Source of the DNA: Candidatus Omnitrophota bacterium
Lineage (GTDB): Bacteria > Omnitrophota > Gorgyraeia > Duberdicusellales > 4484-171
NCBI GenBank assembly: GCA_003154195.1
Contig: PMCS01000024.1
Location: forward strand, 28-64,027
DNA length: 64,000 bases
Direction of reading: 5' to 3'
This document shows positions 7,146 through 63,030 of this stretch, one piece after another. Both the position numbers and the translations under genes were made by a program. Within the stretch, counting starts at the first letter, position 1. Each line of letters opens with the position of its first letter. The notes below the pieces were generated by a model that saw nothing but the letters and a program-made list of their open reading frames with translations, ran no database searches and was not told where the DNA came from.

Positions 7146-7461
7146 GGAAGCTATTTTACAGGAAGTAGTGAAATTTGGGAAGGGAAAAATAAAACCAAAA
7201 GCTTTACCACTAAGTCACTAAAACACGAAGACACGAATAATATAAAAACTCATTTTATATTGTTCATTGACCATTTAACGTTTTAAATTTTTAAAAATGA
7301 TAAATGACCAACGTCCAATGATATTTTTAAAATGAATTTGTTGTTTTTCTTTGTGTACCTTGTGTCTTGGTGGTACGATTTAGGTTTTAATTTTTTAGTT
7401 TTTAAAATCCTTTTCTTTACCTGTGATCATCGGCATCATCTAATCAGCGATCATCCGCGTT

Positions 7462-10400
7462 TTACGGTAATGACGCAAACTGTGCTAACGATATAATCTG
7501 CTTCATCGAAACAATCCGAAACGTCAGCCGGTCGAAGAAATCCGGCCCGACTGCCGCAAATTCCATCTTCTGCGATGTGGGGCTGGAGGCCACCTGAATA
7601 CCGGACATCTTGATACCGCCGGGGGAACTGGTAACTTCCACAGGTTTTTCTGCTCCGGCGTTGCTGCCTGCAGCCGTAATCACAAACTTCGGCTGAGTGC
7701 CTGAAGCATCAAGAGTTATCTCCGAGCCGGGATACTCTCCCTTAAGCTGCGCGATATATTCCTGAGCCTTAACTAAATCAAATGTAGACACTCCTCCTTT
7801 AAGAGTAACAGCAATCTCGTAACGGCCGGCAAGGGCCTCTTCAAACTCCTGGTTGGGACCGAAAACGCTCGTTGCGCCGTTAGCTCCGATGATACCTAAA
7901 AAAGTATGGATTGCATCATTTATCCTAATCGCATCAAGAACCGTCAACTTTTGAGCGGGGCTGGCAGCTGAGGTTTCTTCAACTATATTGATTATTCCTT
8001 GCCAATTACCCGCGGTAAGATGCTGAGCGTCTAAGGAATCTATCCTTACTTCTCTTGACTCTTTGCCTGCCGTCAAAGCTTCAAGATTGTTTCGATTGAT
8101 GATTAACGTCCGGTTGCCACCGATGCGCAAAACGTCAATTTCCTGCGGTAGGTCAGCTAAACGCATAATCCACGCGCCATAGCGCATAGCGTTAGAAAGC
8201 CCCTGATAAATTGTTTTCGCCGCGGCGGCAGAAATATCTTTTTCCACATATAAGGTCTTACCGTCTCTTTGTGCATCAACATTTTTATATTCCACTTGGT
8301 TATCGCGGGAGTTTTCAACAATAAGAACTATCTCTCGCCAATTACCCGCGTCAAGATACTGAGCGGATAAGGAATCTATCCTTACCTCTCTCGACTCTTT
8401 GCTTGTCGCCAAAACTTCGAGATTGTTTCGATTGATGATTAACGTCCGGTTGTCACCGATGCGCAAAACGTCAATTTCCTGCGGTAGGTCAGCTAAACGC
8501 ATAATCCACGCGCCATAGCGCATAGCGTTAGAAAGCCCCTGATAAATTGTTTTCGCCGCTTCGCCGGCAATAGCACTTTCGACACCTAAAGTCTTTCCGT
8601 CTTTTTCGACATCAACATCTCGATAGTGAACCGGGCTGGCGGCGCCGGCTGCGGTTTTTGTTTTTCCTGCCGTCAGTTGTCTTATGCCCGATTTTCCCTG
8701 TCCGGCACTGGCCGAACGGGAAACTCTCTTCCCAATCGCATTAATCCGCCAGAGTTCGCCTTCTACCGCAATAGACCATCCCCGCGCTTCAAGAGCTTGG
8801 CGGAAAGGCTCGAGGTCACTCAGTGAATTCATCCTAAAGCCTTCGTCGTTATAGACCACATCCCGGCTATCCGTGATAATAAAACTACTTCTATGGAGAC
8901 GGATAAAACTCACCAGACGCGCAAAGGTAAGATCCTTTCCTACGCCGAGCGCGTTTATCGCCTCGGCTAAGACGCTAAGAAACCTGGCAAAATACTTAAA
9001 TTCGTTGATACGCACTATACTTGGTGAACCTCTCCTGGCGTCGGCGCCGGAAAAAGAACGACCGCGCTTAGCTGCTACCCCGGTCGTAAAAAGTATCTCC
9101 CTGGGAGTGGCGCGATCCCCCGTCCCAAGGTTATGGATATCATCCACCGGGCTGGCGCTGGAGACGGATGCAAGGTCTTCACGTGCTTCTCGGGAAGGTT
9201 GCCATACGTCAATCGCTCTAATGGCATCAGCCAATTGCTTTTGGTAAGTTGTTGTTCCTACTGTTTTGAATATGGCGGCGTTGGCTAAAATTCTTGCCTC
9301 GTCCTGGTATAGTCGGCGTATCAAAGAAAGCCGCGACTGGAATTCTAAAACCAGTGGTCGATGCTGCGTCGCATATTCTCCCGCGGATAAGGCAGTTATT
9401 TTACCAAGCGGCATTATCACAAAAGAGCTCGGGACGCCTTTGTAGTATTCACTTTCTATCGTTGCCATATCCTCTGAGGCCATTCTTCTAACCATCTCAA
9501 TGCCTGCAGTCAAAGCCTTTTCTGGCATAATTCCCCTGGGTAAAACTACATCTACCGGCTGGCCAAAATAAGCCGCAAGGCTTTGGGTATCATAATCTTG
9601 CGCTGATTCTAAAACCGTTATTCTGTCCCCTGATGCTAAAAAAGCAAAGCGCGGCAAGCCGACCGATAACGCTGCGGCTATGCCAAATTTAAAAAGGTCG
9701 GGCCGGTTGGCAAGAAACTCTTCTTTGCTGGAGGCACCTATCCCAGCAACGATCTGCGAAACGGCTGCTTCTTTTATCGTATCGATGGCACTCTCGGAAT
9801 ATCGTCCATCAGCGCGTATCATTTCCCCTGAAGCAGCGATTTGTTCTTGTATTGCTGCTCCGATATTTTCAAAAAGTTTTTTACGGCTGGGAAGATCTGT
9901 TTTGTCTATTCTTGAAGTCGTGTTGACCGGGCTGGCGTTGGTCGAATCCCATAATTTCTTGATAATCATCGCGGCAAGCGTAACTGTGTCTTTTTTATCG
10001 CTATTGACTACCCCGTTCATGGTCAAGCGTTTTAACCATTTAAACATTGGCTCTTTAAATTGGTCTAAGCCTAAAACCATCACCCAGGTAACGGGATTGC
10101 TTTCTAAAAAAGCGGTAGGAACAGCATCGCTCCAATGACGGGGGACTCCTATAGTCCAGCCGCCTCGATGTAACGACATAATCAAATCCCTGCCAAAGGT
10201 TTGTTCTAAAAGGTCGTCCTTTTGGTCTTGTCGCAAAGCAAACCTTAACGCGTACTCGGAAATAAAGACTTTTTTCACTCTTGATGTTGCAATCGGCGGC
10301 AGGAGCTTTACCATTTCCCCGGCCGCGTCATAATTAGCACCCTGGGTTTCTCTCATTGCCGTCTTTATCGCTCTAAGTTCGTCTTTTATTTCTCTCAAGG

Positions 10401-14283: not shown

Positions 14284-14406
14284 GGCAAGTTGGTTTGGTC
14301 CACAGATTTCTCAGATTTATCGGATTGAAGATTGGATAGATTAATGCAATATTTTAAAAAAATTAATCTTTTTTTTGAATCCGCAGAAATCTGCGTAATC
14401 TGTGGA

Positions 14407-15290: not shown

Positions 15291-15569
15291 TTTTTTGAGC
15301 CTCCTTTAATGAGCAGACGATTTACAAATTTTGGTAAAAATTTGTAAATCGTAGGGCGAAGCCCGTCTGCGAATTAAACCCCGCCCTTTTGGCGTTATCG
15401 ATAAATTAAAACATTCTTTTTAGCAACCGCTTTAACCCCGCTTTTTTACCTAAACACTCAGCCAAAAGGGCGGGGCAATAAAACTTGGCCCGGTTTACCG
15501 GGACTTAGTTTTATTGATCCGACTACCGATTTTTTCTGCGCCCCTTTAGGACTTAGAAAAATCGAAGTC

Positions 15570-19288: not shown

Positions 19289-19437
19289 GCTATCTCCTTG
19301 CTTCTTTTTTGGCCACAAATTAATCAATGTGTTTAGCCACTGATGCGCACGGATCGAACACGGATATTTTTTGTTTCATTGAAATCCGTGTTTATCCTTG
19401 ATAATCCGTGGCTAAATAAAACCAATGGCGTCGTTTG

Positions 19438-20304
19438 CTATTTAATATACTTTCCGATGATTATTTTCAACTTCTTTTTTGTTTCCACCGGGATGATTTT
19501 GCGATCGGTGATAATTGCGTACTTCAGCGCTTCATGACAGCTGCAAATTTTATCTTTTTCGATTAAAGGGATCGTTTCCTTGATGATTTGCTTGGCGTTG
19601 GCCACGTTTTTATTGAGATTGGCGATAATCATCTCCACGGTCACGGTTTCGTGGGACTGGTGCCAGCAGTCGTAGTCGGTAACCGCGGCAATGGTAACGT
19701 AGCATATCTCCGCTTCTCTCGCCAACCGCGCCTCGCTCATATTGGTCATGCCGATGATATCCATCCCCCAGGAACGGTAAAGCTTTGATTCGGCCAGGGT
19801 AGAAAATTGCGGCCCTTCCATATTGACGTAAGTCCCGCCGAAATGCATGCGAGCCCCGGTCTTTTGCCCTGCCGCGTAAACTTTTTTCATCAAGCAACCG
19901 CAGGTCGGTTGGGCAAAGCCGATATGCGCCACAATACCTTCCTCAAAAAATGTCTGTTTCCTGCCCTGGTTGGTGCGGTCTAAAAATTGGTCAGGCAGGA
20001 CAAAATCCATCGGAGCTAAATCTTCTTTCAACGAGCCGCAGGCCGATACCGAAATTATATGGGTAACGCCTAATTTTTTCATCCCGTAGATGTTGGCGCG
20101 ATAGTTTATTTGCGACGGGTTAATCCGATGGCCTACACCGTGGCGCGGTAAAAATACGACATCACTACCGGCGAGCTTGCCGGTGATATATTTATCGGAT
20201 GGTTTGCCGAAGGGAGTTGTCAGGGTTATTTTTTTTACTTTAGTTATCCCTTCGATATTATATAACCCGCTCCCGCCAATGATCCCTATTTTTGTTTTAT
20301 TCAT
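19438..20304 (-). CDS. mtnP: S-methyl-5'-thioadenosine phosphorylase / purine nucleoside phosphorylase (PNP family 2)
   Basis: N-terminus KIGIIGGSGLY and overall MTAP-like sequence. Confidence 0.75.
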   Translation of the reverse strand: MNKTKIGIIGGSGLYNIEGITKVKKITLTTPFGKPSDKYITGKLAGSDVVFLPRHGVGHRINPSQINYRANIYGMKKLGVTHIISVSACGSLKEDLAPMDFVLPDQFLDRTNQGRKQTFFEEGIVAHIGFAQPTCGCLMKKVYAAGQKTGARMHFGGTYVNMEGPQFSTLAESKLYRSWGMDIIGMTNMSEARLAREAEICYVTIAAVTDYDCWHQSHETVTVEMIIANLNKNVANAKQIIKETIPLIEKDKICSCHEALKYAIITDRKIIPVETKKKLKIIIGKYIK

Positions 20305-20490
20305 ACTTAGCTCCTGGGTAATGGTAAGGGTAACGATGCCCGTATAGGCTAAAGACTTGGTCAGGGTAAAGGTAAGGATGCCAGTATAGGTTAGGGTTAA
20401 GGTAAAGGTTTTAAGATTAGTATCAGCCCTAACCCTTGCCGTAACCCAAACTGGCTTCGTTACCCTAGCCCTAGCCTTAACCGATTTTTA
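20305..20490. repeat. about 170-bp imperfect palindromic repeat (GGTAAGG/GGTTAGG-rich arm versus CCCTAACC/CCTTAACC-rich arm), copy 1
   Basis: reverse complement of 20400-20490 matches 33440-33530 almost base for base. Confidence 0.8.
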
Positions 20491-21285
20491 CTAAGAATAT
20501 ATTTTAGCTATCTCGTCGCCGCGTTTGCGCGCTGCGTCGATTGCCGCGGCGATTATTTTATCCAAATGTTTCGCTTTGAACACTTTGCGGCCGGCTTCGG
20601 TCATCCCTTTTCTGGAGGTCACCTCATCGGCTAAAACGCCAAAATCTTTGCCGCTGATCACGGAAAGTTTCGCCGCGCCAAGAAACACTTGGTTTATCAT
20701 TGCCTTAGCGGTTTCCCGATCAAAGCCCGCCTTCACGGCGCCCTGGTAGATACTGTTCATGATATGGTAAACAAAACCCGGACCACATCCGGCGATTGCC
20801 GTAGCCTTGTTAATCGAGCGCTCATCGATTAATGCGGTTTTTCCTACAGTATTAAATATTTCCCGCGCCAGGCCGATGTCGTTGGCTGAGGCTAACCTGC
20901 CCTTACAGATAAACGATATAGATTCGCCGACACGCGCGGCAAGGTTCGGCATTACCCGTATCACTTTAACCCCGGTTAAATGTTTCTCAAAAAATTTTAT
21001 GTTTAACCCGGCGGCGATGGTGATGAACAAGGGTTTTTTGGCGATAAAAGCATTCTTATGGGTTTCGATAAAAGTCTTAATGTCTTGCGGCTTGATCGCT
21101 AATATCGTAACGTCGCTGTTTTTAATGAGTTCAGCGGGATTTTTTACCTGGTAGAGGTTTCTTTGCGTTTCGGTTTTCGGCGCGATATCGTAGAAACAAA
21201 CTTTACCCTTGTTTAATGCGGCCAGAGCCGTACCAATCGCTTTACCCATATTACCGAACCCGATAATTCCTATATTCTCAATCAT
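20491..21285 (-). CDS. proC: pyrroline-5-carboxylate reductase
   Basis: N-terminus IGIIGFGNMGKAI plus the ProC family C-terminal domain. Confidence 0.85.
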   Translation of the reverse strand: MIENIGIIGFGNMGKAIGTALAALNKGKVCFYDIAPKTETQRNLYQVKNPAELIKNSDVTILAIKPQDIKTFIETHKNAFIAKKPLFITIAAGLNIKFFEKHLTGVKVIRVMPNLAARVGESISFICKGRLASANDIGLAREIFNTVGKTALIDERSINKATAIAGCGPGFVYHIMNSIYQGAVKAGFDRETAKAMINQVFLGAAKLSVISGKDFGVLADEVTSRKGMTEAGRKVFKAKHLDKIIAAAIDAARKRGDEIAKIYS

Positions 21286-24039: not shown

Positions 24040-25881
24040 TTATTGCAGGGTTACCAGTATTTTAACCAGCCCCTTGCCTTTGGCTAAACCGGTTAGCGCT
24101 TTGCCCAATATCGCCCCCCGGGCTTTGTTGTGGTTGGTGACTTTACGGGCGTGACCAGCCGTATTGGATGTAGTCAATAAATCACCCGGCTCGATCGCTC
24201 CGTAATCGGCATCGGCGTAGCAAAATACTCTTCCCACCAGGGCCACGGGTTCTCCGGCGTCACCCCTGTCTTTCTGGGACATTTGCAGTCCGGGTTTGAT
24301 TCCGCCCGCGCCGCTTAAAACGCCGGCAACAGTTTTATCGTATTCCTTAGCGCAAAGTTTTAGATTTTCGCTGTTTGCCGGGTCTATACAGACAACCATG
24401 CCGGGCTCAGCCTTGGGGCCTTCGATTTTGAATGGCTCGGCAACATCCGCTCCGCCGGTAATAGTGATTACCGAAGTTTTAGTCTCGCCGCTGACCTCCA
24501 GGGCGACAGAAGGCTGGCTTGTGCCGATTCCTACTTTGCCGCTGGCGATATAAACATTTGAGCCGGATTGCTTCCATGCTCCCCCGGCAGTGGTTTGTAT
24601 CGAGCCGTCGGGAAATTTAATTCCTCCATTTCCAACATCATTTGATATTATGATTTGCCCTCTCATCGTAAGCGGAGCGCTGATCGTGACACCGGCGTAG
24701 GTAAAGACTGTGCCGGTTGGTTTATCGACCGCCCAACCACATAAGATACTGGGATCGCCGGTAGTAAGTACTGAACCATCGGGGAATTTTACCCCTCCGT
24801 TGGTGGTTTCAATAACGCCGTTAACGGTGAGCTTAGAAGAAGGGTTGACTGTCCCGATCCCGACATTGCCGCCGGCCTGGATAGCAAGGACATCACTCCC
24901 CGCAGCGGTTTTAAATCTTAAATCATTGCCGCTTAAATATTCATACCACTTCAGCGCGTTGGCGGCATTGGCAAAAGCGAGGTTATTGGCATCCGCCCTA
25001 AGCTTCAGACTACCGACAACGTCCAGCCTTGTATCCGGGGTTGTCGTTCCGATACCGATATTTCCGCCTTTTTTTAATATTAGCCCTTGTCCTGAGATGC
25101 CGGAATCGCCGTAATGATATAAACCAAGAATAGAATTGCCACCGGTAAAGTATTGGTAGAAGATCCCCCCGGTTTCATTAACGGCTTCAGCTCTCCCAAG
25201 GTCTATTGTCAAATAATTCGCGTTCGCCAATGAAGGCTTGAAAAGTCTGATCATCCCCGCTGAACTATCTGCTCCCGGTTGCGAAACTTCCAGCGCACCC
25301 CCCGGCGTCGCCGTACCAATACCGACGTTACCGCCGCGGTAAGAAATATTACCCGAAGAGATGGCCCAGGGATTATTGTTGCTCGCCGCCGTAGCCTGGG
25401 TTGTGCCGTCGGGGAATTTAATCCCGCCGTTGGTAGTTTCGATTATGCCCGCTACGGTAAGTTTCGAAGTCGGGGCTGTTGTCCCGATACCGACATTACC
25501 GGAGAAATCCGCGTTGCCGCCAACGGATAATTTGTTCGTCGGAGCGGTTTCCCCAATCCCGACATTGCCGCTCGACTTTAGAGTGATTGCGTAAATATTT
25601 GACGGAGATAAAAACAGCAAGTCATTATTGCTGAAATACTCCCGCCACATTATATTGTTGGCGGCATTAGCAAAAATAATTCCTTGCGAATCGGAGCGTA
25701 GTTTAATACCGCCGGCAATATCCAGCTTTGCCTCCGGAGTGGTTGTTCCTATGCCGACATTGCCGCCGGTATAATAAATCTTACCGGTTTGTTCCAGCCA
25801 TCCGGCCCAGGCATAGGTGCTGATCGTTGTGGAGAAAGCCGCCGTTATTGCCAATCGTGTCAGCCAAATATTTTTTTTCAT
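24040..25881 (-). CDS. secreted Gly-rich repeat protein (GNVGIGTTxPxxKLxV repeats; tail-fibre-like) with a distinct C-terminal domain
   Basis: signal peptide; at least 8 repeats of the GGNVGIGTTTP motif; the C-terminal 150 aa are non-repetitive. Confidence 0.55.
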   Translation of the reverse strand: MKKNIWLTRLAITAAFSTTISTYAWAGWLEQTGKIYYTGGNVGIGTTTPEAKLDIAGGIKLRSDSQGIIFANAANNIMWREYFSNNDLLFLSPSNIYAITLKSSGNVGIGETAPTNKLSVGGNADFSGNVGIGTTAPTSKLTVAGIIETTNGGIKFPDGTTQATAASNNNPWAISSGNISYRGGNVGIGTATPGGALEVSQPGADSSAGMIRLFKPSLANANYLTIDLGRAEAVNETGGIFYQYFTGGNSILGLYHYGDSGISGQGLILKKGGNIGIGTTTPDTRLDVVGSLKLRADANNLAFANAANALKWYEYLSGNDLRFKTAAGSDVLAIQAGGNVGIGTVNPSSKLTVNGVIETTNGGVKFPDGSVLTTGDPSILCGWAVDKPTGTVFTYAGVTISAPLTMRGQIIISNDVGNGGIKFPDGSIQTTAGGAWKQSGSNVYIASGKVGIGTSQPSVALEVSGETKTSVITITGGADVAEPFKIEGPKAEPGMVVCIDPANSENLKLCAKEYDKTVAGVLSGAGGIKPGLQMSQKDRGDAGEPVALVGRVFCYADADYGAIEPGDLLTTSNTAGHARKVTNHNKARGAILGKALTGLAKGKGLVKILVTLQ

Positions 25882-26591: not shown

Positions 26592-26630
26592 GCAGTAACC
26601 ACGCTAAAAAATTATACTATAAAGATAAAA

Positions 26631-26850
26631 AAATAAAACCTAAACCTACCACTAAAGCACCAAAATAAAAACAAAACCAAAATATTTACCACCAAGGCAC
26701 CAAGAGCACCAAGAAGATTAGTAGTTGCATTCTTTTCTTTGTGCCCTTTGTGGTAAGTTTTAGGTTTTATTTATATTCTATAGTTTTGACCTATAGTTTT
26801 TACTTTATATTTTTGTGTTTTGGTGGTAAATTTTTAAGTTTTTTTTAGTC
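26631..26850. repeat. four copies of the CTTGGTGGTAAAnTTTTGGTTTT intergenic element arranged as two nested inverted pairs
   Basis: reverse-complement-form copies at 26631-26665 and 26668-26718; plus-form copies at 26735-26775 and 26800-26848. Confidence 0.8.
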
Positions 26851-27837: not shown

Positions 27838-28046
27838 ATATCTCCTTTAGGCTGGTTGGAATAATTCTACCATAGAAACTTATTTTAGCCACGGATTAAC
27901 ACTGATTTTCACGGATAAATGATGTATTCGTTAAGTTTTTGATAAAAATTCAATAACCAATAATGGTAATTTTTTAAATTTTATAATATTGTTTATCCAA
28001 ATCCGTGTTCCATCTGTGAAAATCAGTGGCTAAATAAACGCATTGG

Positions 28047-31586: not shown

Positions 31587-31620
31587 TAATAAGAAAGTAA
31601 AATGAAATACAAAAACTTTT

Positions 31621-31798
31621 GTCCACAGATTGCTCAGATTTTTATGGCTTAAGAAAAAGATTGGGATATTTATAGATATAAAATAATCCCGCCGTATTTT
31701 GGCGGGATTATCCCGGTAGGCCACCGGCGTGAGCCGGTGGTAGTTCACTTTTTAAATCTGTTTAATCCCAATCCTATTAATCTGAGAAATCTGTGGAA
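31621..31798. repeat. inverted pair of GTCCACAGATT-nCnCAGATTT elements flanking two GC-rich hairpins
   Basis: left copy at 31621-31650; right reverse-complement copy at 31755-31798; internal hairpins atcccgccgtattttggcgggat and ccaccggcgtgagccggtgg. Confidence 0.75.
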
Positions 31799-31820
31799 AA
31801 ATTTTTTGGTTGGTTTTTAA

Positions 31821-32476: not shown

Positions 32477-33343
32477 TTAGGAGACCATTTCGTATATCTT
32501 CTGCCAGGTTTTGGCATGTTTATGCTTTTTCCACAAATGGACAAATTTTTCATACCAGGTTTTGCGGCATTTCTCGCATTCATGGTGATAGTATTTCAGA
32601 AATCCGGATAGCTGCCGGTTATTTTTAAGCGCGCGCGCCTGCTCAAGCCAAACGTCAAATTCGTGGACACTGCCCAGCGCGCGCTGTATTTCAACCAAGT
32701 TTCTGAGGTATTCTTCCGATTCCCCCGGATAAATGGCTTGGAAAAGTTCTAAGGTATAGCGTAAGTGTTTCGCTTCGATACGCATCCGGTGAAGTTTTTT
32801 CCGGGCGTGCGGCTTTTTAACGTAAGGTTCGTAGGCAAGAAGATTTTTAAGGCACCGGGTAACTTTCTTACGCGCGAGAGCGCGCAATCCATGATCATCG
32901 CGCCCGTTATCTTGAGCGACGGCACGCCCAATTTGATCGGGTATCTTTGTTTTATTAAAGCGCTTTACTTCCGCGAGGGCTTTTGTCTGAGCGTCACGTC
33001 GGCGGATTTTATAGATTGTGGCCAGCTCATTAAGCCCCTGCGCTTGTTTTTTTGACAACGCGGCGCCAGGAAAATTTTTCAGGAATTCGATATGGACATC
33101 GAGGTCGCGCGTTTCGCTTAACACGTCAGAAAGGCGGCTCAGGGTTTTTCCCCATTTTTTGCGCTCTTTTTTCGAAAACTGCTTTTTTAAGACCCATAAC
33201 GCGGCGCGCAAACGTCGGGTCGCCACCCGCGCCTCGTGGACATGCTCGATGCTATGGGATTTGGGGATATTATCCAGATGCGCAGCCAGGGCGGTAAGGT
33301 AGCGGAAGATGGTTTGGTTTAAGCGATTATCGATAGTTTCCAT
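32477..33343 (-). CDS. CHAD-domain protein (polyphosphate-granule-associated)
   Basis: conserved His/Arg-rich helical pattern (HEARVATRRLRAAL, KKLHRMRIEAKHLRY). Confidence 0.6.
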   Translation of the reverse strand: METIDNRLNQTIFRYLTALAAHLDNIPKSHSIEHVHEARVATRRLRAALWVLKKQFSKKERKKWGKTLSRLSDVLSETRDLDVHIEFLKNFPGAALSKKQAQGLNELATIYKIRRRDAQTKALAEVKRFNKTKIPDQIGRAVAQDNGRDDHGLRALARKKVTRCLKNLLAYEPYVKKPHARKKLHRMRIEAKHLRYTLELFQAIYPGESEEYLRNLVEIQRALGSVHEFDVWLEQARALKNNRQLSGFLKYYHHECEKCRKTWYEKFVHLWKKHKHAKTWQKIYEMVS

Positions 33344-33349
33344 AAAAAT

Positions 33350-33612
33350 TGGTTAGGGCTATGGCTAGGCTCTCCTTCGCCCTTCGAGCTTTGGAAAAGT
33401 CTCGCCGAAGCCATAGCGAAGGCGGAAAGCCGGTAATAATAATCAGCTAGGGCTAGGGTAACGAAGCCAGTTTGGGTTACGGTAAAGGTTAGGGCTGATA
33501 CTAATCTTAAAACCTTTACCTTTACCTTAACCTATACTGGCATCCTTACCTTTACCCTGACCAAGTCTTTAACCGATACCGGCATCGTTACCCTTACCCT
33601 AGCCGTTTTTAA
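33350..33612. repeat. about 170-bp imperfect palindromic repeat (copy 2, inverted relative to copy 1) plus additional flanking hairpins
   Basis: 33440-33612 matches the reverse complement of 20305-20490. Confidence 0.8.
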
Positions 33613-33613
33613 T

Positions 33614-35617
33614 TTACGTATAGTGCTGGATAAAAAACTCCTGGGCGTTGAATTTATCGCCGGTAATATCAGGTTTAGCGTATTTTTTATCATCCGATAA
33701 AACCCAGGATTTTACATTGTCCTTCCAGCAATTATCCAGGATAAAACGCAGGTGTTCTTTCAGCTCGTCTTTGTATATCTCAAACAAAAGTTCGATGCGC
33801 CGGTCGAAATTACGCGTCATCCAGTCGCTGGAAGCCATGAATATCCGGGGGCCGGCGTTATTATTGAACATATAAATCCGCGAATGTTCGAGGAACCGGC
33901 CGACGATACTTTTTATTTCGATATTTTCGCTTAAGTTTTTAACACCGGGGATAATCACGCATATACCCCGGACAATCAATCTTATTCTCACCCCCGCGTT
34001 CGATGCTTCGTACAGCTTTTCCGCAATTTGCGGGTCTTCCAGGGAGTTCATCTTGGCAAAAATAAAACCATTTTTATATTTCTTATGGTACTCAATTTCC
34101 TTGTCGATCATTTCGAAAAAATATTGGCGTAAATCGTAAGGCGACGAGACAATCCGGTTCCATCTTCCCGGTACGGAATAGCCGGTAATGGCGTTAAAAA
34201 CTTCGGAGATATCTTTGGCGAAATCGTCGTTGGCGGTAAAGTACCCGGCATCAGTGTAAGCGGAAGCGGTTTTTTCGTTATAATTGCCGGTTGACACATG
34301 GACATACCGGCGTATCCTTCCCTCTTCCTTGCGCACTACCAGCGTTATCTTGGAATGAATCTTCATCCCGGCGATACCGTACATCACATGGCACCCCGCC
34401 GCTTCTAAATCCTTTGCCCAATCGATATTGCGCTCTTCGTCGAAGCGCGCCTTGATTTCTACAAGAATCGTTACCTGCTTCTTGTTTTTTGCCGCCTCTT
34501 TCAGGGATTTAATTATGGCGGAATTTTCATCGGTACGGTAGAGGGTCATTTTGATGGCCAGGACGTTTTCGTCTCTGGCCGCGGTTCTGATAAGGTCGAC
34601 GGTCGGCTGGAACGATTGATAGGGAAGGTGGATTAAGAAGTCGCCTTCTTTTATTTTGTCAAAAATATTCTCGTATTCGATTTTTTGAGGAACAAAACTT
34701 TTATAGAGCAATTGCGGCTTATTGAGCTGCGCCGCTAATTCAAATAAATAACTTAATCCCAGCTCGCCGTCAATACCGGTGATCTCTTCCTGGGGAAAAT
34801 CGATACTGGCAAAAAGCGTTTCCAGTATTTCCGCCGGGCAGGATTTTTCTACCTGGGCGCATACGATTTTTGCCTGAGGCCGTTTTTTGACTTCGTTTTC
34901 GATAGCTTTTAAAAGATTGGGCGCGTATTCTTCGTCAACCGACAATTCACTGTCCCGGACTACGCGAAAAAGAGAATTCCCCGCCACTTTATACCCCTTA
35001 AAAAAACCGTCGATATTCTGGCGGATGATTTCATCAATTAAAATAAAATCAAGTTCGTCTCCGGCGGAGGGCAATTTTAAAATTCGCGGCGCAGCTTTGG
35101 GTATCGGCATAACCGCGAGGTGGTTGACATTGTATCGTGACAGCATCACGGCAAAGGCAATGGTTTTTGACGGCAGGACCGGAAATGGCCGGCCCTGGTC
35201 AATCGCCATCGGCGTAATGATGGGAAAAAGCGTTGTTTCAAAATAGGCCCGGCTGTATTTTTTTTGCTCCGCGCTCAACTCCTCGTATTTCCGGATAAAA
35301 ATCTTATTTTTTTCCAGTTCCTTGGCGATTTTATCTTTATAGGAATAAAGTTTTTTATTTAAAAGCTGCACCGTCCCTTTGATTTCCAGGGCGATATCGG
35401 TCGGGAAATAGCCGAAGTTATCTTTTTGGTTATACCCGGAATCAATCAGGCGTTTCAGGCCGGCCACGCGAACCATAAAAAACTCGTCCATGTTATTGGC
35501 GAAAATCGCCAGGAAGCGTAAGCGTTCCGCCAGGGGATTGGACGAGTCAACGGCTTCTTCCAGCACTCGTTCGTTAAACGCCAACCAGCTCAGATCACGA
35601 TGAATAAATTTTTCCAT
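33614..35617 (-). CDS. ppk: polyphosphate kinase 1
   Basis: 667 aa with PPK1 N-terminal, catalytic and two PLD-like C-terminal domains; N-terminus MEKFIHRDLSWLAFNERVLEEA. Confidence 0.85.
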   Translation of the reverse strand: MEKFIHRDLSWLAFNERVLEEAVDSSNPLAERLRFLAIFANNMDEFFMVRVAGLKRLIDSGYNQKDNFGYFPTDIALEIKGTVQLLNKKLYSYKDKIAKELEKNKIFIRKYEELSAEQKKYSRAYFETTLFPIITPMAIDQGRPFPVLPSKTIAFAVMLSRYNVNHLAVMPIPKAAPRILKLPSAGDELDFILIDEIIRQNIDGFFKGYKVAGNSLFRVVRDSELSVDEEYAPNLLKAIENEVKKRPQAKIVCAQVEKSCPAEILETLFASIDFPQEEITGIDGELGLSYLFELAAQLNKPQLLYKSFVPQKIEYENIFDKIKEGDFLIHLPYQSFQPTVDLIRTAARDENVLAIKMTLYRTDENSAIIKSLKEAAKNKKQVTILVEIKARFDEERNIDWAKDLEAAGCHVMYGIAGMKIHSKITLVVRKEEGRIRRYVHVSTGNYNEKTASAYTDAGYFTANDDFAKDISEVFNAITGYSVPGRWNRIVSSPYDLRQYFFEMIDKEIEYHKKYKNGFIFAKMNSLEDPQIAEKLYEASNAGVRIRLIVRGICVIIPGVKNLSENIEIKSIVGRFLEHSRIYMFNNNAGPRIFMASSDWMTRNFDRRIELLFEIYKDELKEHLRFILDNCWKDNVKSWVLSDDKKYAKPDITGDKFNAQEFFIQHYT

Positions 35618-37397: not shown

Positions 37398-37596
37398 GAT
37401 CCCTCCTGATTTTCTTTGGTTAATACCAAAAACCAAATACTTTTGTCCACAGATTTCAAGGATTTTGTAGAAAAAACATGGCCCAAACCCATTAATTTTT
37501 TATACAATGGCTTGATATATGCTATTTTGACCGGAGTTAATTATACCGCTATCCCCGTTTTCGGCAAGAATAAAGAAAAATTGTTATTTTTATTGG

Positions 37597-38367: not shown

Positions 38368-39581
38368 ATTAAAACCTGAATATAAACCAAAAACCTACCA
38401 CCAAGACACTAAGGCACAAAAAACAAAGACTAAAAATAAATTTTCACCACAGAGAACACAGAGCGCACAGAGAAAACAGAACCAAGAAACTTTTCCCCAC
38501 CCGCTCGCTTCGCTCGCTGGAGAGCACGAAGCCCACGAAGGGAAAACAAATTTTTACCGCAAAGGCGGTGTGTAGCGGAGCGAAGCGTAACCTCCCCAAA
38601 AGGGGACAAAGTGCGCAAGGTAAATAATTAAGTACGTGTCCCCGGAACTTCGAACTTAAAATAAGTTTTAATGGTTTTTCATGGAATCTCTTCCGAATAT
38701 TAAAAAAAAGGGATAGTTAAATTGTCTTGTCAAAATTATGAATTTTCCATCCTGAACGGACGGCCCAGACATTAGTTCAATTTCATCTTTATCTTCGATA
38801 TAATAAAAAGCCATACCGAAGATGTCATTCCTATTGGCAAGTTCTTCGGGTATAGGAATTTTTATTTTTATTATATCGTCAGCATATCCGGATTGGCTTG
38901 TGTCTTTACTTATGGGGGAAACTTTAATTACACTGACTTTTCCCCCGTAAGTAACTTTAACTTTAGGATGCTCGAAATAAGCCGCCGCTACGCTTACACT
39001 TATTTTTTGTTCTGTTTTTAATGCATTTTGAGGAAATTCTATTTCTACGCCGTCAAGAGGGTAGTCGGAATTCGGAACAGTTATGAGACCGCCTTTAGGG
39101 CCTATTGTTTGTGAGCATATTTCAACAAAATTAGATTCATACGTTATAATTTTAGCTTGAGCGCAAAATGTTGATCCGGGAAGCATTAATGTAATAAGCC
39201 CAAGATAAAAGATATTAAGGAATTTTTTCACGAAAACATCCTTTTTTATTTTCCTCTGACAAAAAAATCATACGACAATCCTATTTTTTAATATTAGTTG
39301 AAAGTCTTTAGCGGCCGGGGTGTCTTCTAGTTAATAATAACGCGAAAAAGTATTTGTCTTTATCTTTGGAAATCTGCGTAATCTGTGGACAAAAATATTT
39401 TGTATTTCTTTGTACCTTAGCAGTCAGAAATCATTCTTCCAGTTTTTTCATTCCTCTTCCTTATCTCTTGTTTTTTGCTCTTTTTCTTTTGGTATCTCTC
39501 TGCGAACTCTGTGCGCTCTGTGGTGAAAATTTTATTTTTTGTGCCTTGGTAGTAAATTTTTTGGTTTATCTTCTTTTGTTT
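38368..39581. mobile_element. 1.2-kb cassette with about 100-bp imperfect terminal inverted repeats inserted between pdxA and rsmA/ksgA (MITE-like; carries one secreted-protein gene)
   Basis: left inverted repeat 38372-38492 and right inverted repeat 39460-39581 are reverse complements (shared ...attttcaccacagag...cgcacagag... and ttaccaccaaggcacaaaaaa cores); both abut the flanking genes directly. Confidence 0.55.
38668..39231 (-). CDS. hypothetical secreted protein (cassette passenger gene)
   Basis: N-terminal signal peptide MKKFLNIFYLGLITLMLPGSTFCAQA; no recognisable domain. Confidence 0.5.
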   Translation of the reverse strand: MKKFLNIFYLGLITLMLPGSTFCAQAKIITYESNFVEICSQTIGPKGGLITVPNSDYPLDGVEIEFPQNALKTEQKISVSVAAAYFEHPKVKVTYGGKVSVIKVSPISKDTSQSGYADDIIKIKIPIPEELANRNDIFGMAFYYIEDKDEIELMSGPSVQDGKFIILTRQFNYPFFLIFGRDSMKNH

Positions 39582-40520: not shown

Positions 40521-40692
40521 ATATGTAGTAAGTAGAGGGATGAAAAGAAAATTGTTTTCCGTTGAAAGGTTGCGTAGCTCGTCACGGCGTTCGGCAAAAA
40601 AGACGGTAACCGTATGACGATAAACAATTCGAGTTACGCAACCGATAACCGATTGACGTATTTTTTCTCTTTACTTTTCGCTCTCTACTTCC

Positions 40693-41682: not shown

Positions 41683-41874
41683 TTTCAATCTTTCTAAATC
41701 CGCTGCGGGCGGATTTACCGATAAGCCTACCATGCGGTTCAGCAGTAGGGTAGGCTTATTCTCCTTCGCCGAATACCCTGTGGTCTTGCCACAGGGATGA
41801 AGGCTATGATCTTCGGCTTCGGAGAAATGAAGCTGGATACCCCGCGGTCTTGCCGCGGGGAGAACATTGGTGCT

Positions 41875-42192: not shown

Positions 42193-42214
42193 GTTGTATA
42201 TTTTTTTAGCACAG

Positions 42215-42390
42215 ATGATCGCTGATTAGAAGATGCAGATTACCGCAGACAGGAACCAAATTAGAATACTCCGCAAATTTTAATTAAGCAAAATTAGTGA
42301 GTATTATAAAGACGAATAGCTTGCAACCGGTTCTTCTAATCTATCATCGCCAATCTTTTTATCAGCGGCCATCAGCATCTTCTAATCAGC
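42215..42390. repeat. inverted pair of GATGATCGCTGATTAGA(A/T)GATGCAGAT elements (family C)
   Basis: 42222-42238 cgctgattagaagatgc and 42368-42384 gcatcttctaatcagcg form a perfect 17-bp inverted repeat; homologous copies at 7421-7465 and 54640-54790. Confidence 0.8.
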
Positions 42391-42394
42391 GATT

Positions 42395-47158: not shown

Positions 47159-47210
47159 GTTTTTCCTCCTTAGCTGAATTCCAGTATATAAAACTAAAAC
47201 AAAAAACTTA

Positions 47211-47338
47211 GTCCACAGATCTCTCAGATTTATTCGGATCCAAAAATTAGTAGATAAATAAAAAAATAAAAGAACTATTTTTCTTACATTTGCTTTATCA
47301 TTTCCGGAAATCCATGAAAATCTGCGTAATCTGTGGAC
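47211..47338. repeat. inverted pair of GTCCACAGATT-nCnCAGATTT elements upstream of rpsP
   Basis: 47211-47241 gtccacagatctctcagatttattcggatcc; 47304-47338 is its reverse complement. Confidence 0.8.
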
Positions 47339-47346
47339 AAAAAGTT

Positions 47347-49292: not shown

Positions 49293-50135
49293 TTATATCC
49301 TAACCCCTATTCCCTTTTTAGCCAGATAGTCTTTTATTTCTCTGATTTTAATTTCCCGGTAATGGAATATTGAAGCCGCCAGGGCCGCCGTAGCTTTTGT
49401 CTCGGTGAAAACATCGTAAAAATCAACGATGCTCCCCGCGCCGCCGGAAGCAATCACGGGGATTTTTACCGCGTTCGAAACCGCTCCGGTAAGGCCAATA
49501 TCAAAACCATTTTTTGTGCCGTCGGAATCCATACTGGTCAAAAGTATTTCTCCCGCTCCCAGCTTTTCCGCTTTCTTCGCCCACTCGACCACGTCGATCC
49601 CCGTAGGGGTTCTGCCGCCGTTGACATAAACTTCCCATTTGTCAGAAGACGCTATGGGTGATTGATGAAGGATGATGGATGAGGGATGATAAAAATATTT
49701 TTTTCGTCCTTCGTCCTTCATCCTTCGTCCTTCGCGCTTCTTCGCGTCGATTGCTACTACGATACACTGGCTGCCGAAAATCCTGCTTGCCTGAGTAATC
49801 AATCCGGGGTGATTTACCGCGGCGGTATTAATCGACACCTTATCGGCGCCGGCAATCAGTAATTGGCGTATATCCCCGGCGGTACGTACGCCGCCGCCTA
49901 CGGTAAACGGCATAAATACTACGTTGGCAACCTTTTTTACCAATTCCACGGTTGTGGCGCGCCGCTCGTGGCTGGCGGTGATATCCAGAAAAACCAGTTC
50001 ATCCGCTCCCTCTTTTTCATAAATCAGGGCGTTTTCCACCGCGTCGCCGGCGTCGCGCAGGTTAACAAAATTAACCCCTTTTACGACTCGGCCATTATTG
50101 ATATCTAGGCAGGGAATAATCCGCTTTGCCAACAT
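49293..50135 (-). CDS. hisF: imidazole glycerol phosphate synthase cyclase subunit, with an about 28-aa in-frame palindromic insertion
   Basis: HisF (beta/alpha)8 motifs ([31 protein letters not shown]); the extra segment [28 protein letters not shown] is encoded by the dyad-symmetric stretch 49655-49745. Confidence 0.8.
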
Positions 50136-51016: not shown

Positions 51017-51282
51017 AATTTTTCCCCTATTCCCCGATGGTTGGCGATTGCGCGAAAAATAAGCATTGTTTGCTTATCCCGCAAATCGCATTCTGTTACA
51101 TTGTATTATTTGCATTATATCATTTATGTAATTATTTGCTAACAAATTATTTCGCGCAAAAATTGCGAAACGATCCGCGCAAAATTTTCCTTGTCGGCAC
51201 AGCGCATTGTTGATAGACTATGCCCAGGTGATTAAAAAAGAATAAAACTGTAACCACATGATTACAGTGCGTAGCGAAGCAT

Positions 51283-51335
51283 TGAATTTCTTTGTGACTT
51301 AGTGCCTTGGTGGTAAAGTTTTTGGTTTTTACCTT
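51283..51335 (+). repeat. solo copy of the CTTGGTGGTAAAgTTTTTGGTTTT element ending at the TPR-gene start codon
   Basis: tttctttgtgacttagtgccttggtggtaaagtttttggtttttacc. Confidence 0.75.
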
Positions 51336-52486: not shown

Positions 52487-53311
52487 TCATTCCTTAGCCC
52501 CCGCCTGCTTCAGTAAAGTGGCAATTTCTGCATGCCCGCTCTGCTCTGCCCACGCCAAGGCTGTCCTGCCACCGTTATCTTTCACATCGGTGCTAGCGCC
52601 ATTGCTCAATAAAAGCCCGACGGTTTTAGCATGTTCACTCTCATACTTCTGCGGCGAGGAAATGTAATAGCTCACCGCCCACATTAAAACTGTCTTACCA
52701 TTGTTATCTTTCGCGTTGATGTCAGCGCCGTTGGCCAACAAAACCGTGACGGTTTCTGCATGCCCCCCTTGAGCTGTCATCATCAAGGCAGTCCGGCCGT
52801 TATGACCCCTGGTATTGACCTCGGCGCCCTTAGCCAGCAAAAGTTTGACGATTTCAGTATGTCCGATACCTGCTGCCGACATCAAAGCGGACTGGCCGTT
52901 GTAAGCTTTAGCATTAACCTCGGCGCCGTGGGCTAACAAAATAGTAATAATTTCAATATTTCCCGTGTTCGCCGCCAAAAGCAAGGCCGTAAAATTATAG
53001 TTATCTCTGGCATTGACGTCGGCACCGAGAGCCAATAAGACCTTGACGATTCCGGCGTGTTCCTTTTCACGCCCATCTTCTACATACCATAATTGCGAGA
53101 AGGAATATACCTCACGCATCAAGACCGTCTTGCCATTACGATCTTTCGCGTTGATACCGCCGGCCTTGGCCAAAAGGGCCGTGGTGGCTTCAGCATTTCC
53201 GGCCTCTACTGCCTCAAGCAACTGCCGGCCCAAATCCTGCGCGAAAATGGTAGCGGAAATCAATGACACAAACAATACAATTCCACTGCCTATTTTTATT
53301 ATCCGCGGCAT
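52487..53311 (-). CDS. secreted ankyrin-repeat protein
   Basis: signal peptide; about 6 ANK repeats (TALMxAAxxGHxEIVKLLLAKGAEVN). Confidence 0.8.
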   Translation of the reverse strand: MPRIIKIGSGIVLFVSLISATIFAQDLGRQLLEAVEAGNAEATTALLAKAGGINAKDRNGKTVLMREVYSFSQLWYVEDGREKEHAGIVKVLLALGADVNARDNYNFTALLLAANTGNIEIITILLAHGAEVNAKAYNGQSALMSAAGIGHTEIVKLLLAKGAEVNTRGHNGRTALMMTAQGGHAETVTVLLANGADINAKDNNGKTVLMWAVSYYISSPQKYESEHAKTVGLLLSNGASTDVKDNGGRTALAWAEQSGHAEIATLLKQAGAKE

Positions 53312-53629: not shown

Positions 53630-53704
53630 CAGCCCCAAGGGGATTCGAACCCCTGTTACCTGGTTGAGAACCAGGCGTCCTAGGCCAGGCTAGACGATGG
53701 GGCC
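53630..53704 (-). tRNA. tRNA-Glu (anticodon CUC); 3' CCA not encoded
   Basis: cloverleaf GGCCCCA-TC-GTCT..GGAC-G-CCTGG-TTCTCAA-CCAGG-TAAC-AGGGGTTCGAATCCCCT-TGGGGCT-G; closely resembles bacterial tRNA-Glu; followed by a T-tract. Confidence 0.8.
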
Positions 53705-53867
53705 ATATAAAGTAGCGAGTAGAAAGGAAAAAGTAGAAACGAAAAGTATATTAAGGAATAATCGTTTATGATTTTAAAGGATAAAGCAGTTTTGTCAATA
53801 ACCATCGTTTTTATCTTTTGTTTTTGTATTTTCTTTCTACTTTCTCATCGCTACTTTATACTTTTTT

Positions 53868-54632: not shown

Positions 54633-54639
54633 TCCGTTC

Positions 54640-54790
54640 GCCGCAGATAATCGCTGATTAGATGATGCAGATGATCACCGATAAATACTATAAACCTCGA
54701 TAAAAAACGGAAATCGTAATTTATTATTTTGAATTTAAACGTTATATTAATATCTGTGATCATCTGCTTCTTCTCATCAGCGATCATCGG
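54640..54790. repeat. inverted pair of family-C elements (ATCGCTGATTAGATGATGCAGATGATCAC and its reverse complement)
   Basis: 54648-54680 and 54750-54790 are reverse-complementary; related to 7421-7465 and 42215-42390. Confidence 0.8.
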
Positions 54791-55298
54791 CGCCGGCGAG
54801 CCAAATCTTGCGCATTTCTTCGGTTATTTCCTGTTGTAAAGGATAGCTTATCTCTTTTTCGTTGCCGTTGCCGACAATATTTTTATTTTTAACGGCGTCT
54901 TCCTTAAGAAATTCTTTTATGTGCGCGCAGGGCACGCCATTAGTTTTGGCATAATCGCGGATGCTGCGGTCATCGGTTACGACAATTGCTTCGGAGGCAG
55001 CGCATGGTTTTTTAGTAGTCTTTATCTGGTAAACAATATTTTTTATGATATCGTCCGCGCTTTTATCGGAACTGAAAAGTACCTGGAATTGCGACTCTTT
55101 TTTTACCTCGGGATTAAAATTTCCGTCAAAAACTATAATCGCTTTATTATTTTTACTTCCCGTAAGGGAATAGCGGTGTATATAATTTATCAGGTCGGTA
55201 TGGATGGAACTCGAATTATTAAGCTGGGGGATTTTGTGGGCCAGATTGAAAGCATCGATTATATAGACCAACATAGGTAATTCCTCCCAGGATACCAA
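54777..55298 (-). CDS. NYN-domain (YacP/Rae1-like) putative ribonuclease
   Basis: LVYIIDAFNL ... IIVFDGN ... AIVVTDD pattern of PIN-like NYN domains. Confidence 0.45.
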   Translation of the reverse strand: MVSWEELPMLVYIIDAFNLAHKIPQLNNSSSIHTDLINYIHRYSLTGSKNNKAIIVFDGNFNPEVKKESQFQVLFSSDKSADDIIKNIVYQIKTTKKPCAASEAIVVTDDRSIRDYAKTNGVPCAHIKEFLKEDAVKNKNIVGNGNEKEISYPLQQEITEEMRKIWLAGADDR

Positions 55299-56184: not shown

Positions 56185-56204
56185 ATTTTTTATTTTTCGC
56201 TTCG

Positions 56205-56375
56205 CGAAAATAAATTAAGGAAATTGGGGTATCGGAAAATCATGATTTGGTGATTTGGGTATTGGGATACTCGGCCATCGGTTATCGCCTCTTTGCCGTT
56301 TCCCCTAATTTCCCAGTCTCCCAATCCCCGAATCCTGATCCCCTAATCCCCTGATATCCCAATTTAAAATTACCC
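56205..56375. repeat. 165-bp internally palindromic repeat (GGGATA/TTGGG-rich arm versus TATCCC/CCCAA-rich arm), copy 1, immediately 3' of trxB
   Basis: direct repeat of 57306-57480 (about 85% identity). Confidence 0.8.
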
Positions 56376-57305: not shown

Positions 57306-57480
57306 AATGATTTTTAATTAAGGAGATTGGGGTATTGGGAAATTAGGATTTGGATATTAGGATACTGGGATATTTGCCTATCGGTTATCGCCTCTTTGCC
57401 GATCCCCCTAATTCCCTAATTTCCCAATCCCCAAATCCCGATATCCTGATCCCCTGATATCCTAAAAGGAGATCCCGATA
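57306..57480. repeat. 165-bp internally palindromic repeat, copy 2, immediately 5' of trxB
   Basis: aattaaggagattggggtattggg...gatatcctgatcccctgatatcc. Confidence 0.8.
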
Positions 57481-57517
57481 CTTTTAAATTAAGTCGCCAT
57501 AATATTACAGGCAGCCT

Positions 57518-62472: not shown

Positions 62473-63030
62473 TGGAGCCCCACGGGATTACCCGTGGTAC
62501 CTCTAAATGCGCCCCCGTGGGGCGACGTCCCGTTCCGCTTTCCTGCCTCGCCGATGGCTCGGCAAGGCGGGCATCCCCCGCCTACCGGCGGGGGATGCCC
62601 GCTACGGGATAATAATTATTTTCCCCGCAAAGTTTCGCGGGGAAAATAATTATACCGCAAAAAACAAACCGCGCAAGATATAGATTAACTTTTGACAAAA
62701 TTGAAACTGTACCCTTGCGCTATGTTTTTACCCCTTCGCTATCGCTTCAGGGGTTCACCGCCTCCCGGGATAATTATATCAAGGAAGCGGGATCCCGCCG
62801 AATCCGACGAAGTCGGATGCAGGCGGGAAATTCGACTACCGCCTCACCATTCGCCCCCGCCATCCCATAGATGGCGAGGTCTCGTCAATTCGTTTAACGA
62901 ATTGACGGACTTCGCGCTTTGGCTCGGCGAAGTCTCATTATAAAAACATGGGGAATCCCGGTAACAATTTTTTGCCAAAGAGCGGTTTACCGTATTGCCG
63001 GGATTCCCCCACCGGCAGGGAGACTTCAAG

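Follow-up and report, generated by a model that had tools for sequence, protein, structure and literature searches.

Two intergenic hairpin repeats of an Omnitrophota bacterium as putative gene-less members of an element family spanning bacterial phyla

Some bacterial 23S rRNA genes carry intervening sequences (IVSs) in helices 25 and 45. IVS hairpins without an open reading frame (ORF) occur in Salmonella and Yersinia, and hairpins that carry an S23p ORF (PF05635) occur in Leptospira. We know of no explanation for the spread of rRNA IVSs, and of no function for PF05635/TIGR02436 proteins outside the Avd proteins of diversity-generating retroelements (DGRs). In Coxiella burnetii the IVS is described as a selfish hairpin with an S23p ORF, which is reported as decaying, and is excised by RNase III (PMC4990558). 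Here we analyze two inverted copies of a hairpin element in a 64,000-nucleotide stretch of a Candidatus Omnitrophota genome (GenBank assembly GCA_003154195.1, contig PMCS01000024.1; the whole stretch is called the window). Sequence comparison identifies the two repeats as paralogs that carry no gene and belong to a hairpin-element family spanning bacterial phyla. The full form of this family carries a four-helix-bundle (4HB) gene in the loop.

The family resembles the PF05635 S23p rRNA IVSs. Both are extended imperfect hairpins with a 4HB gene of the same family in the loop of the full form. Both include ORF-less forms and forms with a decaying ORF, and like the IVSs the family may be regarded as selfish, horizontally acquired and part of the host transcript. 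Unlike for the IVSs, this transcript would be that of a protein-coding operon, the arms have a conserved sequence of their own, and the gene-less form multiplies within genomes. Both window copies lie between protein-coding genes, and the window contains no rRNA. RNase III excision has been shown for rRNA IVSs, whereas for the hairpin family it would follow by analogy.

Hairpins of Correia elements are also processed by RNase III. Correia/NEMIS elements of Neisseria and ERIC/IRU elements of enterobacteria (127 bp) are imperfect palindromes of 100–170 bp that lie between operon genes in either orientation, occur in multiple copies and form long mRNA stems, as expected for the hairpin family (PMC2229807, PMC3184786). 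Correia elements have terminal inverted repeats and a TA duplication, whereas no duplication is seen in the hairpin family. ERIC and Correia elements are each confined to one lineage; the hairpin family, in contrast, spans many phyla and has a gene-carrying relative. A third parallel is provided by repetitive extragenic palindromes (REPs), REPINs and their RAYT genes: palindromes that multiply in genomes and depend on a single-copy protein gene in trans (PMC3116915). REPs, however, are GC-rich and 20–40 nt long, have a GTAG head and are partnered by an IS200-like Y1 transposase, whereas here the partner gene lies inside the palindrome. With a length of 165–170 nt, a GC content of 40–45% and no Y1 transposase that recurs across 96 loci, the element is neither a REP nor a bacterial interspersed mosaic element. 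Avd, finally, is a protein that binds nucleic acids and reverse transcriptase. It belongs to the same 4HB superfamily (NF033474; PMC10053308), and the divergent 4HB protein of locus L039 scores 43 bits against the Avd model, below the cut-off of 80. Unlike in DGRs, no reverse transcriptase, template repeat or variable repeat lies beside the 4HB cassettes.

A repeat search of the window finds an inverted pair at 20323–20475 and 33446–33598. It is 153 nt long, 95% complementary and separated by 12,970 nt; pairwise alignment agrees. An earlier reading made from the letters alone (the sequence-only reading) had described two nearly identical, inverted palindromes of about 170 bp, and this description holds. 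The element is about 165–170 nt long, with approximate borders set by pairwise alignment, and has a GC content of 40–45%. Each copy is an imperfect palindrome centred on ttttaagattagtatca and contains three copies of a 23-nt unit, GGTAASGAWGCCNGTWTNGGYTA. The corresponding pattern, GGTAASGAWGCCNGTWTRGGYTA, occurs 6 times in the window compared to 0 times expected in shuffles. The parts are as follows, where the strand of each element is the forward orientation of the covariance model R1 introduced below.

20313 to 20482, plus strand: hairpin copy 1, antisense to the minus-strand genes on either side (pairwise alignment, repeat search and R1).
20329 to 20351, plus strand: unit A1 (GGTAACGATGCCCGTATAGGCTA), outer direct copy on the long arm of copy 1, an exact match to the pattern.
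20371 to 20393, plus strand: unit A2 (GGTAAGGATGCCAGTATAGGTTA), inner direct copy on the long arm of copy 1, a pattern match.
20409 to 20425, no strand: central loop of copy 1, without trace of a 4HB ORF in tblastn and jackhmmer searches.
20442 to 20464, minus strand: inverted unit (GGTAACGAAGCCAGTTTGGGTTA on the minus strand) on the short arm of copy 1, which can pair with A1 or A2.
33441 to 33604, minus strand: hairpin copy 2, sense to the genes on either side (pairwise alignment, repeat search and R1).
33457 to 33479, plus strand: inverted unit of copy 2, a pattern match.
33528 to 33550, minus strand: unit A2 of copy 2, a pattern match.
33570 to 33592, minus strand: A1 in copy 2, which departs from the pattern at one position.

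The long arm (about 95 nt) contains two direct units and the short arm (about 57 nt) one inverted unit. Because the arms are unequal, the stem has about 50 interrupted pairs, not the 70 bp proposed from the letters. In predicted folds both copies, read from either strand, form 51–56 base pairs at about -60 to -71 kcal/mol (56 pairs and -64.7 kcal/mol for copy 1; 56 pairs and -71.5 kcal/mol for copy 2). With flanks included, the z-scores against shuffles are -2.5 and -3.4. The heptad periodicity seen by the sequence-only reading dissolves into loose 6–7-nt words (GGTAAC/GGTTAG); the true repeat is the 23-nt unit. The sole report of Tandem Repeats Finder is ACCTTT x4.3 in copy 2; copy 1 gives none. 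There is no regular tandem array in either copy, and the proposed likeness to telomeric or satellite sequence has to be given up. Neither copy has coding potential, as had been noted: both contain in-frame stop codons and no ORF of note.

Further copies, which the sequence-only reading had proposed to look for, exist in other genomes. When 185,579 species-representative genomes are scanned for the 23-nt unit, 94 loci are found, compared to about 4 expected by our own arithmetic (38 bits of pattern over 1.2e12 positions). Four of the 94 resemble unrelated coding sequence (L015, L045, L070 and L091). Most of the remaining loci share one architecture and are nearly all the same hairpin. It consists of a 5' arm ..GGTAACGGTTAGGGTAACGAAGCCCGTATCGGTTA..GGTAACGT, an A-rich loop and a 3' arm ACGTAACCG-aaaGACGAA-ACGGGCATCGTAACC-nTAACC. 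The arms are built on a conserved core, GGTAACGAAGCCCGTATCGGTTA, and an imperfect inverted partner, ACGAAACGGGCATCGTAACC. This partner lies 30–110 nt downstream in about 60 loci and about 430 nt downstream in 7.

According to the record titles, the most frequent hosts are Omnitrophota. The others are Desulfobacteraceae, Syntrophaceae, Thermodesulfobacteriota, Planctomycetia, Roizmanbacteria, Saccharibacteria, Levybacteria, WOR-3, Nitrospiraceae, Ratteibacteria and Tritonobacter. At the level of phyla the loci span Omnitrophota, Desulfobacterota, Planctomycetota, Patescibacteria, WOR-3 and Nitrospirota. Since the hosts include a complete 1.9-Mb WOR-3 chromosome and contigs of at least about 200 kb labelled Levybacteria and Planctomycetia, mis-binning cannot explain this spread. 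In a Roizmanbacteria metagenome-assembled genome (L014, L058, L059, L088, L090), the family arms enclose another repeated module, GTCATTCCCAACTTGATTGGGAATCCAGA...GGATCCCCGC...GCGGGGATGAC, on at least 5 contigs of the one genome.

The link between the window copies and the family is made by a covariance model (A3, R1), built from 35 family members in other genomes and from no window sequence. R1 matches copy 2 at 33435–33572 on the minus strand (70.1 bits, E 7e-17; 63.6 bits on the opposite strand) and copy 1 at 20349–20486 on the plus strand (64.7 bits, E 2e-15; 61.2 bits on the opposite strand). In 630 kb of loci R1 gives 157 strand-hits, including extra copies within single 8-kb loci. One further, weak match in the window may be a decayed family member.

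40545 to 40666, plus strand: possible third family member, nested in an outer GGAAGTAGAGAG...CTCTACTTAC hairpin (R1, 18.8 bits, E 0.009).

In canonical members the 3' arm contains an asymmetric GACGAA internal loop, and the core helix has three A.A mismatches. Both window copies lack the GACGAA loop, retain the central A.A alone and have CCCAAACTGGC at the place of the canonical CCGAAAGACGAAACGGGC; one of their arms carries the unit twice. Their sequence places them in a divergent subtype that is closest to the Saccharibacteria loci L018, L049 and L072. Rfam 15 (gathering score or E <= 1) finds only a tRNA in the window and no match over the hairpins of six canonical loci.

In the seven loci with arms about 430 nt apart, the arms enclose an ORF of about 130 codons, whose product starts with M..KKRI.SFRDLEVYQ. 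It matches PF05635 (E 1e-16 to 1e-17) and TIGR02436 (23S rRNA IVS protein, Avd-like) and resembles PDB 2gsc. With tblastn and jackhmmer on fetched loci, full cassettes are found at 11 or more loci (L025, L036, L052, L074, L075, L081, L083, L097, L099, L117 and L120). The last of these, between an IMPDH-like gene and dnaE, was reached independently via the protein and has the same arms. The last codons of the ORF extend into the 3' arm. Hence arm and gene form one unit.

Gene-less copies retain start-proximal (ATG) and terminal codons of the 4HB gene. Contig Ga0074195_1000135 carries one full cassette together with two gene-less copies that are about 97% identical to each other, one of them 3 kb from the cassette. 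In both gene-less copies GTATGAAAAATC is joined to TTTTAAACGAAC. The retained end codons and the common junction indicate that the gene-less form is an internal-deletion derivative that was itself copied. We infer that gene-less forms arise by deletion from the gene-carrying form and multiply as gene-less units; for the window copies this conclusion is drawn from their relatives only.

Several properties of the 4HB genes fit a selfish, horizontally spreading element. Some ORFs decay, with an in-frame stop in L074 and a frameshift in L099. The proteins are 80–93% identical across contigs labelled Desulfobacteraceae, Omnitrophota and Planctomycetia, and the hairpins around the divergent 4HB genes of L039 and L032 consist of other short words and have a quite different sequence. 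The subfamily comprises 2,724 protein clusters, of which the best 120 are all at least 80% identical. An apparent case of the identical protein at several loci was rejected: the 16 contigs of P0159 are one locus seen across many samples. Both neighbours could be called for 12 cassettes, and in 10 of them both share the orientation of the 4HB gene (9 of the 11 cassettes with the family arms and 1 of the 2 divergent genes), which suggests expression by read-through from the host operon.

Family members occupy spacers between genes, and the stop codon upstream is in most cases no more than a few tens of nt away. The window copies follow this pattern. Pfam agrees with the sequence-only reading that they sit between consecutive minus-strand genes.

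19438 to 20304, minus strand: mtnP-like PNP_UDP_1 phosphorylase (Pfam), whose AGGAG and ATG come directly after copy 1.
20491 to 21285, minus strand: proC, P5C reductase (Pfam), with its stop codon 8 nt from the end of copy 1.
32477 to 33343, minus strand: CHAD-domain gene downstream of copy 2 (Pfam).
33614 to 35617, minus strand: ppk1 (Pfam), with its stop codon 9 nt from the end of copy 2.

Copy 1 occupies the whole 186-nt spacer between proC and mtnP, from 8 nt past the proC stop codon to the ribosome-binding site of the next gene. Copy 2 begins 9 nt past the ppk1 stop codon, and an unrelated second hairpin (GCTATGGCTTCGGCGAG...GCCTAGCCATAGC, 33352–33425) intervenes between it and the CHAD start codon. 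With respect to the minus-strand transcripts, copy 1 is antisense and copy 2 sense.

The nearest named proC homologues are from Omnitrophota. A relative with a proC of 45% identity (L115) has the same gene order, proC-PNP-PfkB-aminoacyl-tRNA synthetase, with gaps of 2, -4 and 1 nt. In the window the gaps of this series are 186, 110 and 59 nt. The compact gaps in the relative imply that the window spacers and their hairpins are additions to an originally compact operon. By this comparison of syntenic sequences copy 1 is an insertion, its spacer being absent from the relative. No empty site was found for copy 2: all CHAD homologues recovered have about 30% identity and lack synteny. The hairpin at 19328–19437, which belongs to another type (see below), fills the spacer between mtnP and pfkB, and this spacer is absent from L115 as well.

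All same-species contigs, which include GCA_003154645.1 and WOOD18 scaffolds and come from Stordalen Mire, carry both copies; there is no presence/absence variation at the strain level. Several of these contigs end within copy 2. Contig L113 (1–262) starts at the element edge with copy-1-type bases and runs into the flank of copy 2, and L002 (10786–10991) has copy-2-type bases (GGTAAAGG) within copy 1. These joins are either assembly chimeras at the repeat or products of exchange between the copies.

We consider it reasonably likely that the repeats are selfish, horizontally spread, MITE-like hairpins (MITE, miniature inverted-repeat transposable element) that are co-transcribed with host operons and derive from the 4HB cassette by loss of the gene. 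A cassette would enter intergenic spacers or hairpin loops and spread horizontally between hosts. Since other hairpins are often nested in the loops of family members, loops may be tolerated or preferred landing sites, by analogy with helices 25 and 45 in 23S rRNA. The element would be transcribed by read-through within the operon mRNA, and the transcript is predicted to fold into a long interrupted double-stranded stem. Gene-less forms would be non-autonomous MITE-like derivatives, propagated in trans, possibly by an activity that involves the 4HB protein. The stems in the proC-mtnP and ppk1-CHAD transcripts would serve as processing sites for RNase III, or for a different activity specific to double strands, and this would uncouple the stability of the two flanking cistrons. 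Such processing and altered cistron stability are probable because of the analogy with PF05635-carrying rRNA IVSs and with Correia/ERIC repeats. Processing would be a side effect and not a regulator designed by the host. The two window copies themselves are probably inert passengers.

A number of observations count against this explanation. The first group concerns the window and its genome. The loops of the window copies contain no trace of the 4HB ORF in tblastn and jackhmmer searches, and no 4HB gene was found in the window or in the 10 kb beyond, nor a remnant of one in the window. Only two good copies exist in about 74 kb of the source genome; the 10-kb extension of the source contig adds none. 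The sole empty site comes from the distant relative described above. The family was ascertained by a window-derived pattern, and the conservation of the 5' core is partly due to this construction. In a metagenome scan with a 24-mer specific to the window, the only two copies recovered belong to another organism, and the source contigs were not among the hits.

The second group concerns mobility and transcription. Target-site duplications are missing from both window copies and from eight copies of one genome aligned by their flanks. When all ORFs of 96 loci are clustered, no transposase, integrase or reverse transcriptase recurs near members, and only the 4HB family does. The element is absent from the viral-contig, phage and plasmid collections searched. 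Gene-less copies show only a bias in orientation: 32 are sense and 11 antisense when scored by model strand, and the numbers are 30 and 14 when scored by the core mismatch. The window has one of each. An alignment of 35 members shows no covariation in the helices. The core helix is 96.6% paired and conserved in sequence, and covariation is missing because the helix sequence itself is conserved; the three A.A mismatches keep their positions, in 31, 24 and 33 of the 35 sequences. Mismatches of the G.U type (16) and the A.C type (19) balance each other. Hence no RNA strand is singled out. An apparent A/T covariation (GTATC...GAAAC compared to GTTTC...GATAC) was discarded, as for the most part it reflects the opposite-strand reading of one core helix and not a compensatory change.

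Alternatively, the hairpin may be primary and the 4HB gene a secondary passenger that inserted into existing loops, as it does in helices 25 and 45 of 23S rRNA. The window copies would then never have carried a gene, in line with the lack of an ORF remnant in their loops. Nested hairpins are indeed common in the loops of family members (L053, L063, L047, L065, L058), the L075 and L083 cassettes are enclosed by an outer hairpin of CACAGAT-type words (CACAGATGATCGCAGATGG), and the hairpins around the divergent genes of L039 and L032 differ markedly in sequence from the family arms. A passenger, however, does not account for gene-less copies that retain ATG-proximal and C-terminal ORF codons at the loop, for an ORF end that runs into the 3' arm, or for the same arms accompanying the same 4HB subfamily at the independently found L120. 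We therefore think a passenger gene unlikely.

A second alternative is an immobile, host-selected RNA structure that acts in cis between cistrons, as an mRNA stabilizer, a processing site or an attenuator. Copies that lie 8–9 nt past stop codons inside operons, very stable predicted stems and the bias toward the sense orientation would all suit such a function. It is difficult to reconcile with two window copies that are opposite in orientation to transcription, and with the lack of covariation and of G.U asymmetry. Neither window copy has a promoter or terminator consensus in it or at its end. An intrinsic terminator can be rejected: there is no GC-rich stem with a U-tract, and AGGAG and ATG follow copy 1 directly. 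The relative L115 runs the same operon with a 2-nt spacer, and cores that are nearly identical across phyla cannot be due to vertical inheritance. A host function of this kind is quite unlikely.

The sequence-only reading had offered MITEs, recombination sites and structured-RNA genes as explanations, and the first of these comes closest. The copies are short, intergenic, multi-copy and present in both orientations, assemblies break inside copy 2 as they do at repeats, and since the whole element is an imperfect palindrome it has terminal inverted repeats. The gene-less form also multiplies as such and has a longer, gene-carrying relative. A classical MITE would be a non-autonomous DNA transposon that depends on a transposase, of the DDE type or another, whose gene lies elsewhere in the genome. 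This part of the proposal fails. The longer form encodes PF05635 only, no transposase recurs near members, and the target-site duplications that had been suggested as a check are missing in the window copies and in the eight aligned copies. A classical MITE is accordingly a poor candidate.

It is very improbable that the copies are inverted recombination sites that permit inversion of the 13-kb segment from proC through CHAD. They are inverted, 95% identical and 13 kb apart, L113 joins copy-1-type sequence to the right flank of copy 2, and L002 shows copy-2-type bases in copy 1. But all longer same-species contigs have the same arrangement, the start of L113 coincides exactly with the element edge, which an assembly chimera at a repeat would produce, no recombinase is nearby, and family members elsewhere occur singly. 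An independently transcribed small structured-RNA gene can hardly be entertained, for apart from the stable predicted structure nothing speaks for it: there is no promoter or terminator consensus, no Rfam family, no covariation and no G.U/A.C asymmetry, the copies have opposite orientations relative to transcription, and copy 1 fills its spacer up to the ribosome-binding site of the next gene.

The window contains further hairpins and repeats outside this family.

14284–14406, 31587–31820, 37437–37596, 39346–39400 and 47159–47346: a second intergenic hairpin family with ends GTCCACAGATT...AATCTGTGGAC and CAGATT-type arms, 4–5 copies in 64 kb.
7146–7461, 26592–26850, 38368–38667, 39232–39581 and 51017–51335: a third hairpin family on ACCACCAAGGCAC / GTGCCTTGGTGGT words.
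19328–19437 and 27838–28046: two hairpins with ends TTTAGCCACGGAT...ATCCGTGGCTAAA and CACGGAT/CACAGAT words.
7416–7459, 42193–42394 and 54639–54795: a hairpin family on GATGATCGCTGATTAGATGATGC words, similar to the words in the outer hairpin around the L075 and L083 cassettes.
56185–56375 and 57306–57517: a hairpin with a GGGATATCAGGGGATTAGGGGATC-type G-rich arm in two 150-nt copies, 83% identical.
53706–53860: a hairpin of GTAGCGA/GTAGAAA words that adjoins the only tRNA gene of the window (53630–53704, minus strand).
62473–62691 and 15291–15569: GC-rich multi-hairpin spacers (219 nt, -125 kcal/mol, and 279 nt, -108 kcal/mol).
49664–49729: a palindrome of GATGAAG/GATGATG words inside a heuristic ORF (49293–50135, minus strand); either the ORF call is wrong or the hairpin is intragenic.
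7978–8613, 24776–25766 and 52545–53196: direct repeats inside long ORFs.

By blastn, the spacer at 15291–15569 is similar to L097:2394–2479 and L040:4330–4360, and a spacer at 41734–41874 matches L039:5595–5671. The direct repeats comprise a 300-nt pair (87% identical) in an ORF of 1,763 aa, several repeats of 32–96 nt in an ORF of 613 aa, and six repeats spaced 99 nt apart in an ORF annotated as ankyrin repeats.

In the literature, most subscription journals lying outside our search, we found neither the core sequence nor hairpin-flanked 4HB cassettes outside rRNA or in operon spacers, nor miniature derivatives of such cassettes. Tentatively, the PF05635 4HB genes and their conserved arms could be a previously undescribed class of mobile element, an idea we hold to be possible rather than probable. 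It would live within operons and across phyla and spawn gene-less miniatures without a canonical transposase, perhaps via loop targeting or via an RNA intermediate with an Avd-like nucleic-acid-binding protein. If this is true, then 23S rRNA IVSs are only the best-known landing site of a much broader type of element.

The two copies in the window lead to a broad, undescribed element family that is tied to a large protein family with no known function outside the Avd proteins. A 4HB family in a conserved operon-spacer hairpin, survival and copying after gene loss, and cores that are nearly identical across phyla would make the idea of a selfish hairpin testable. Such elements inflate intergenic spacers and break metagenome assemblies, and they may alter the processing of operon mRNAs in uncultivated lineages.

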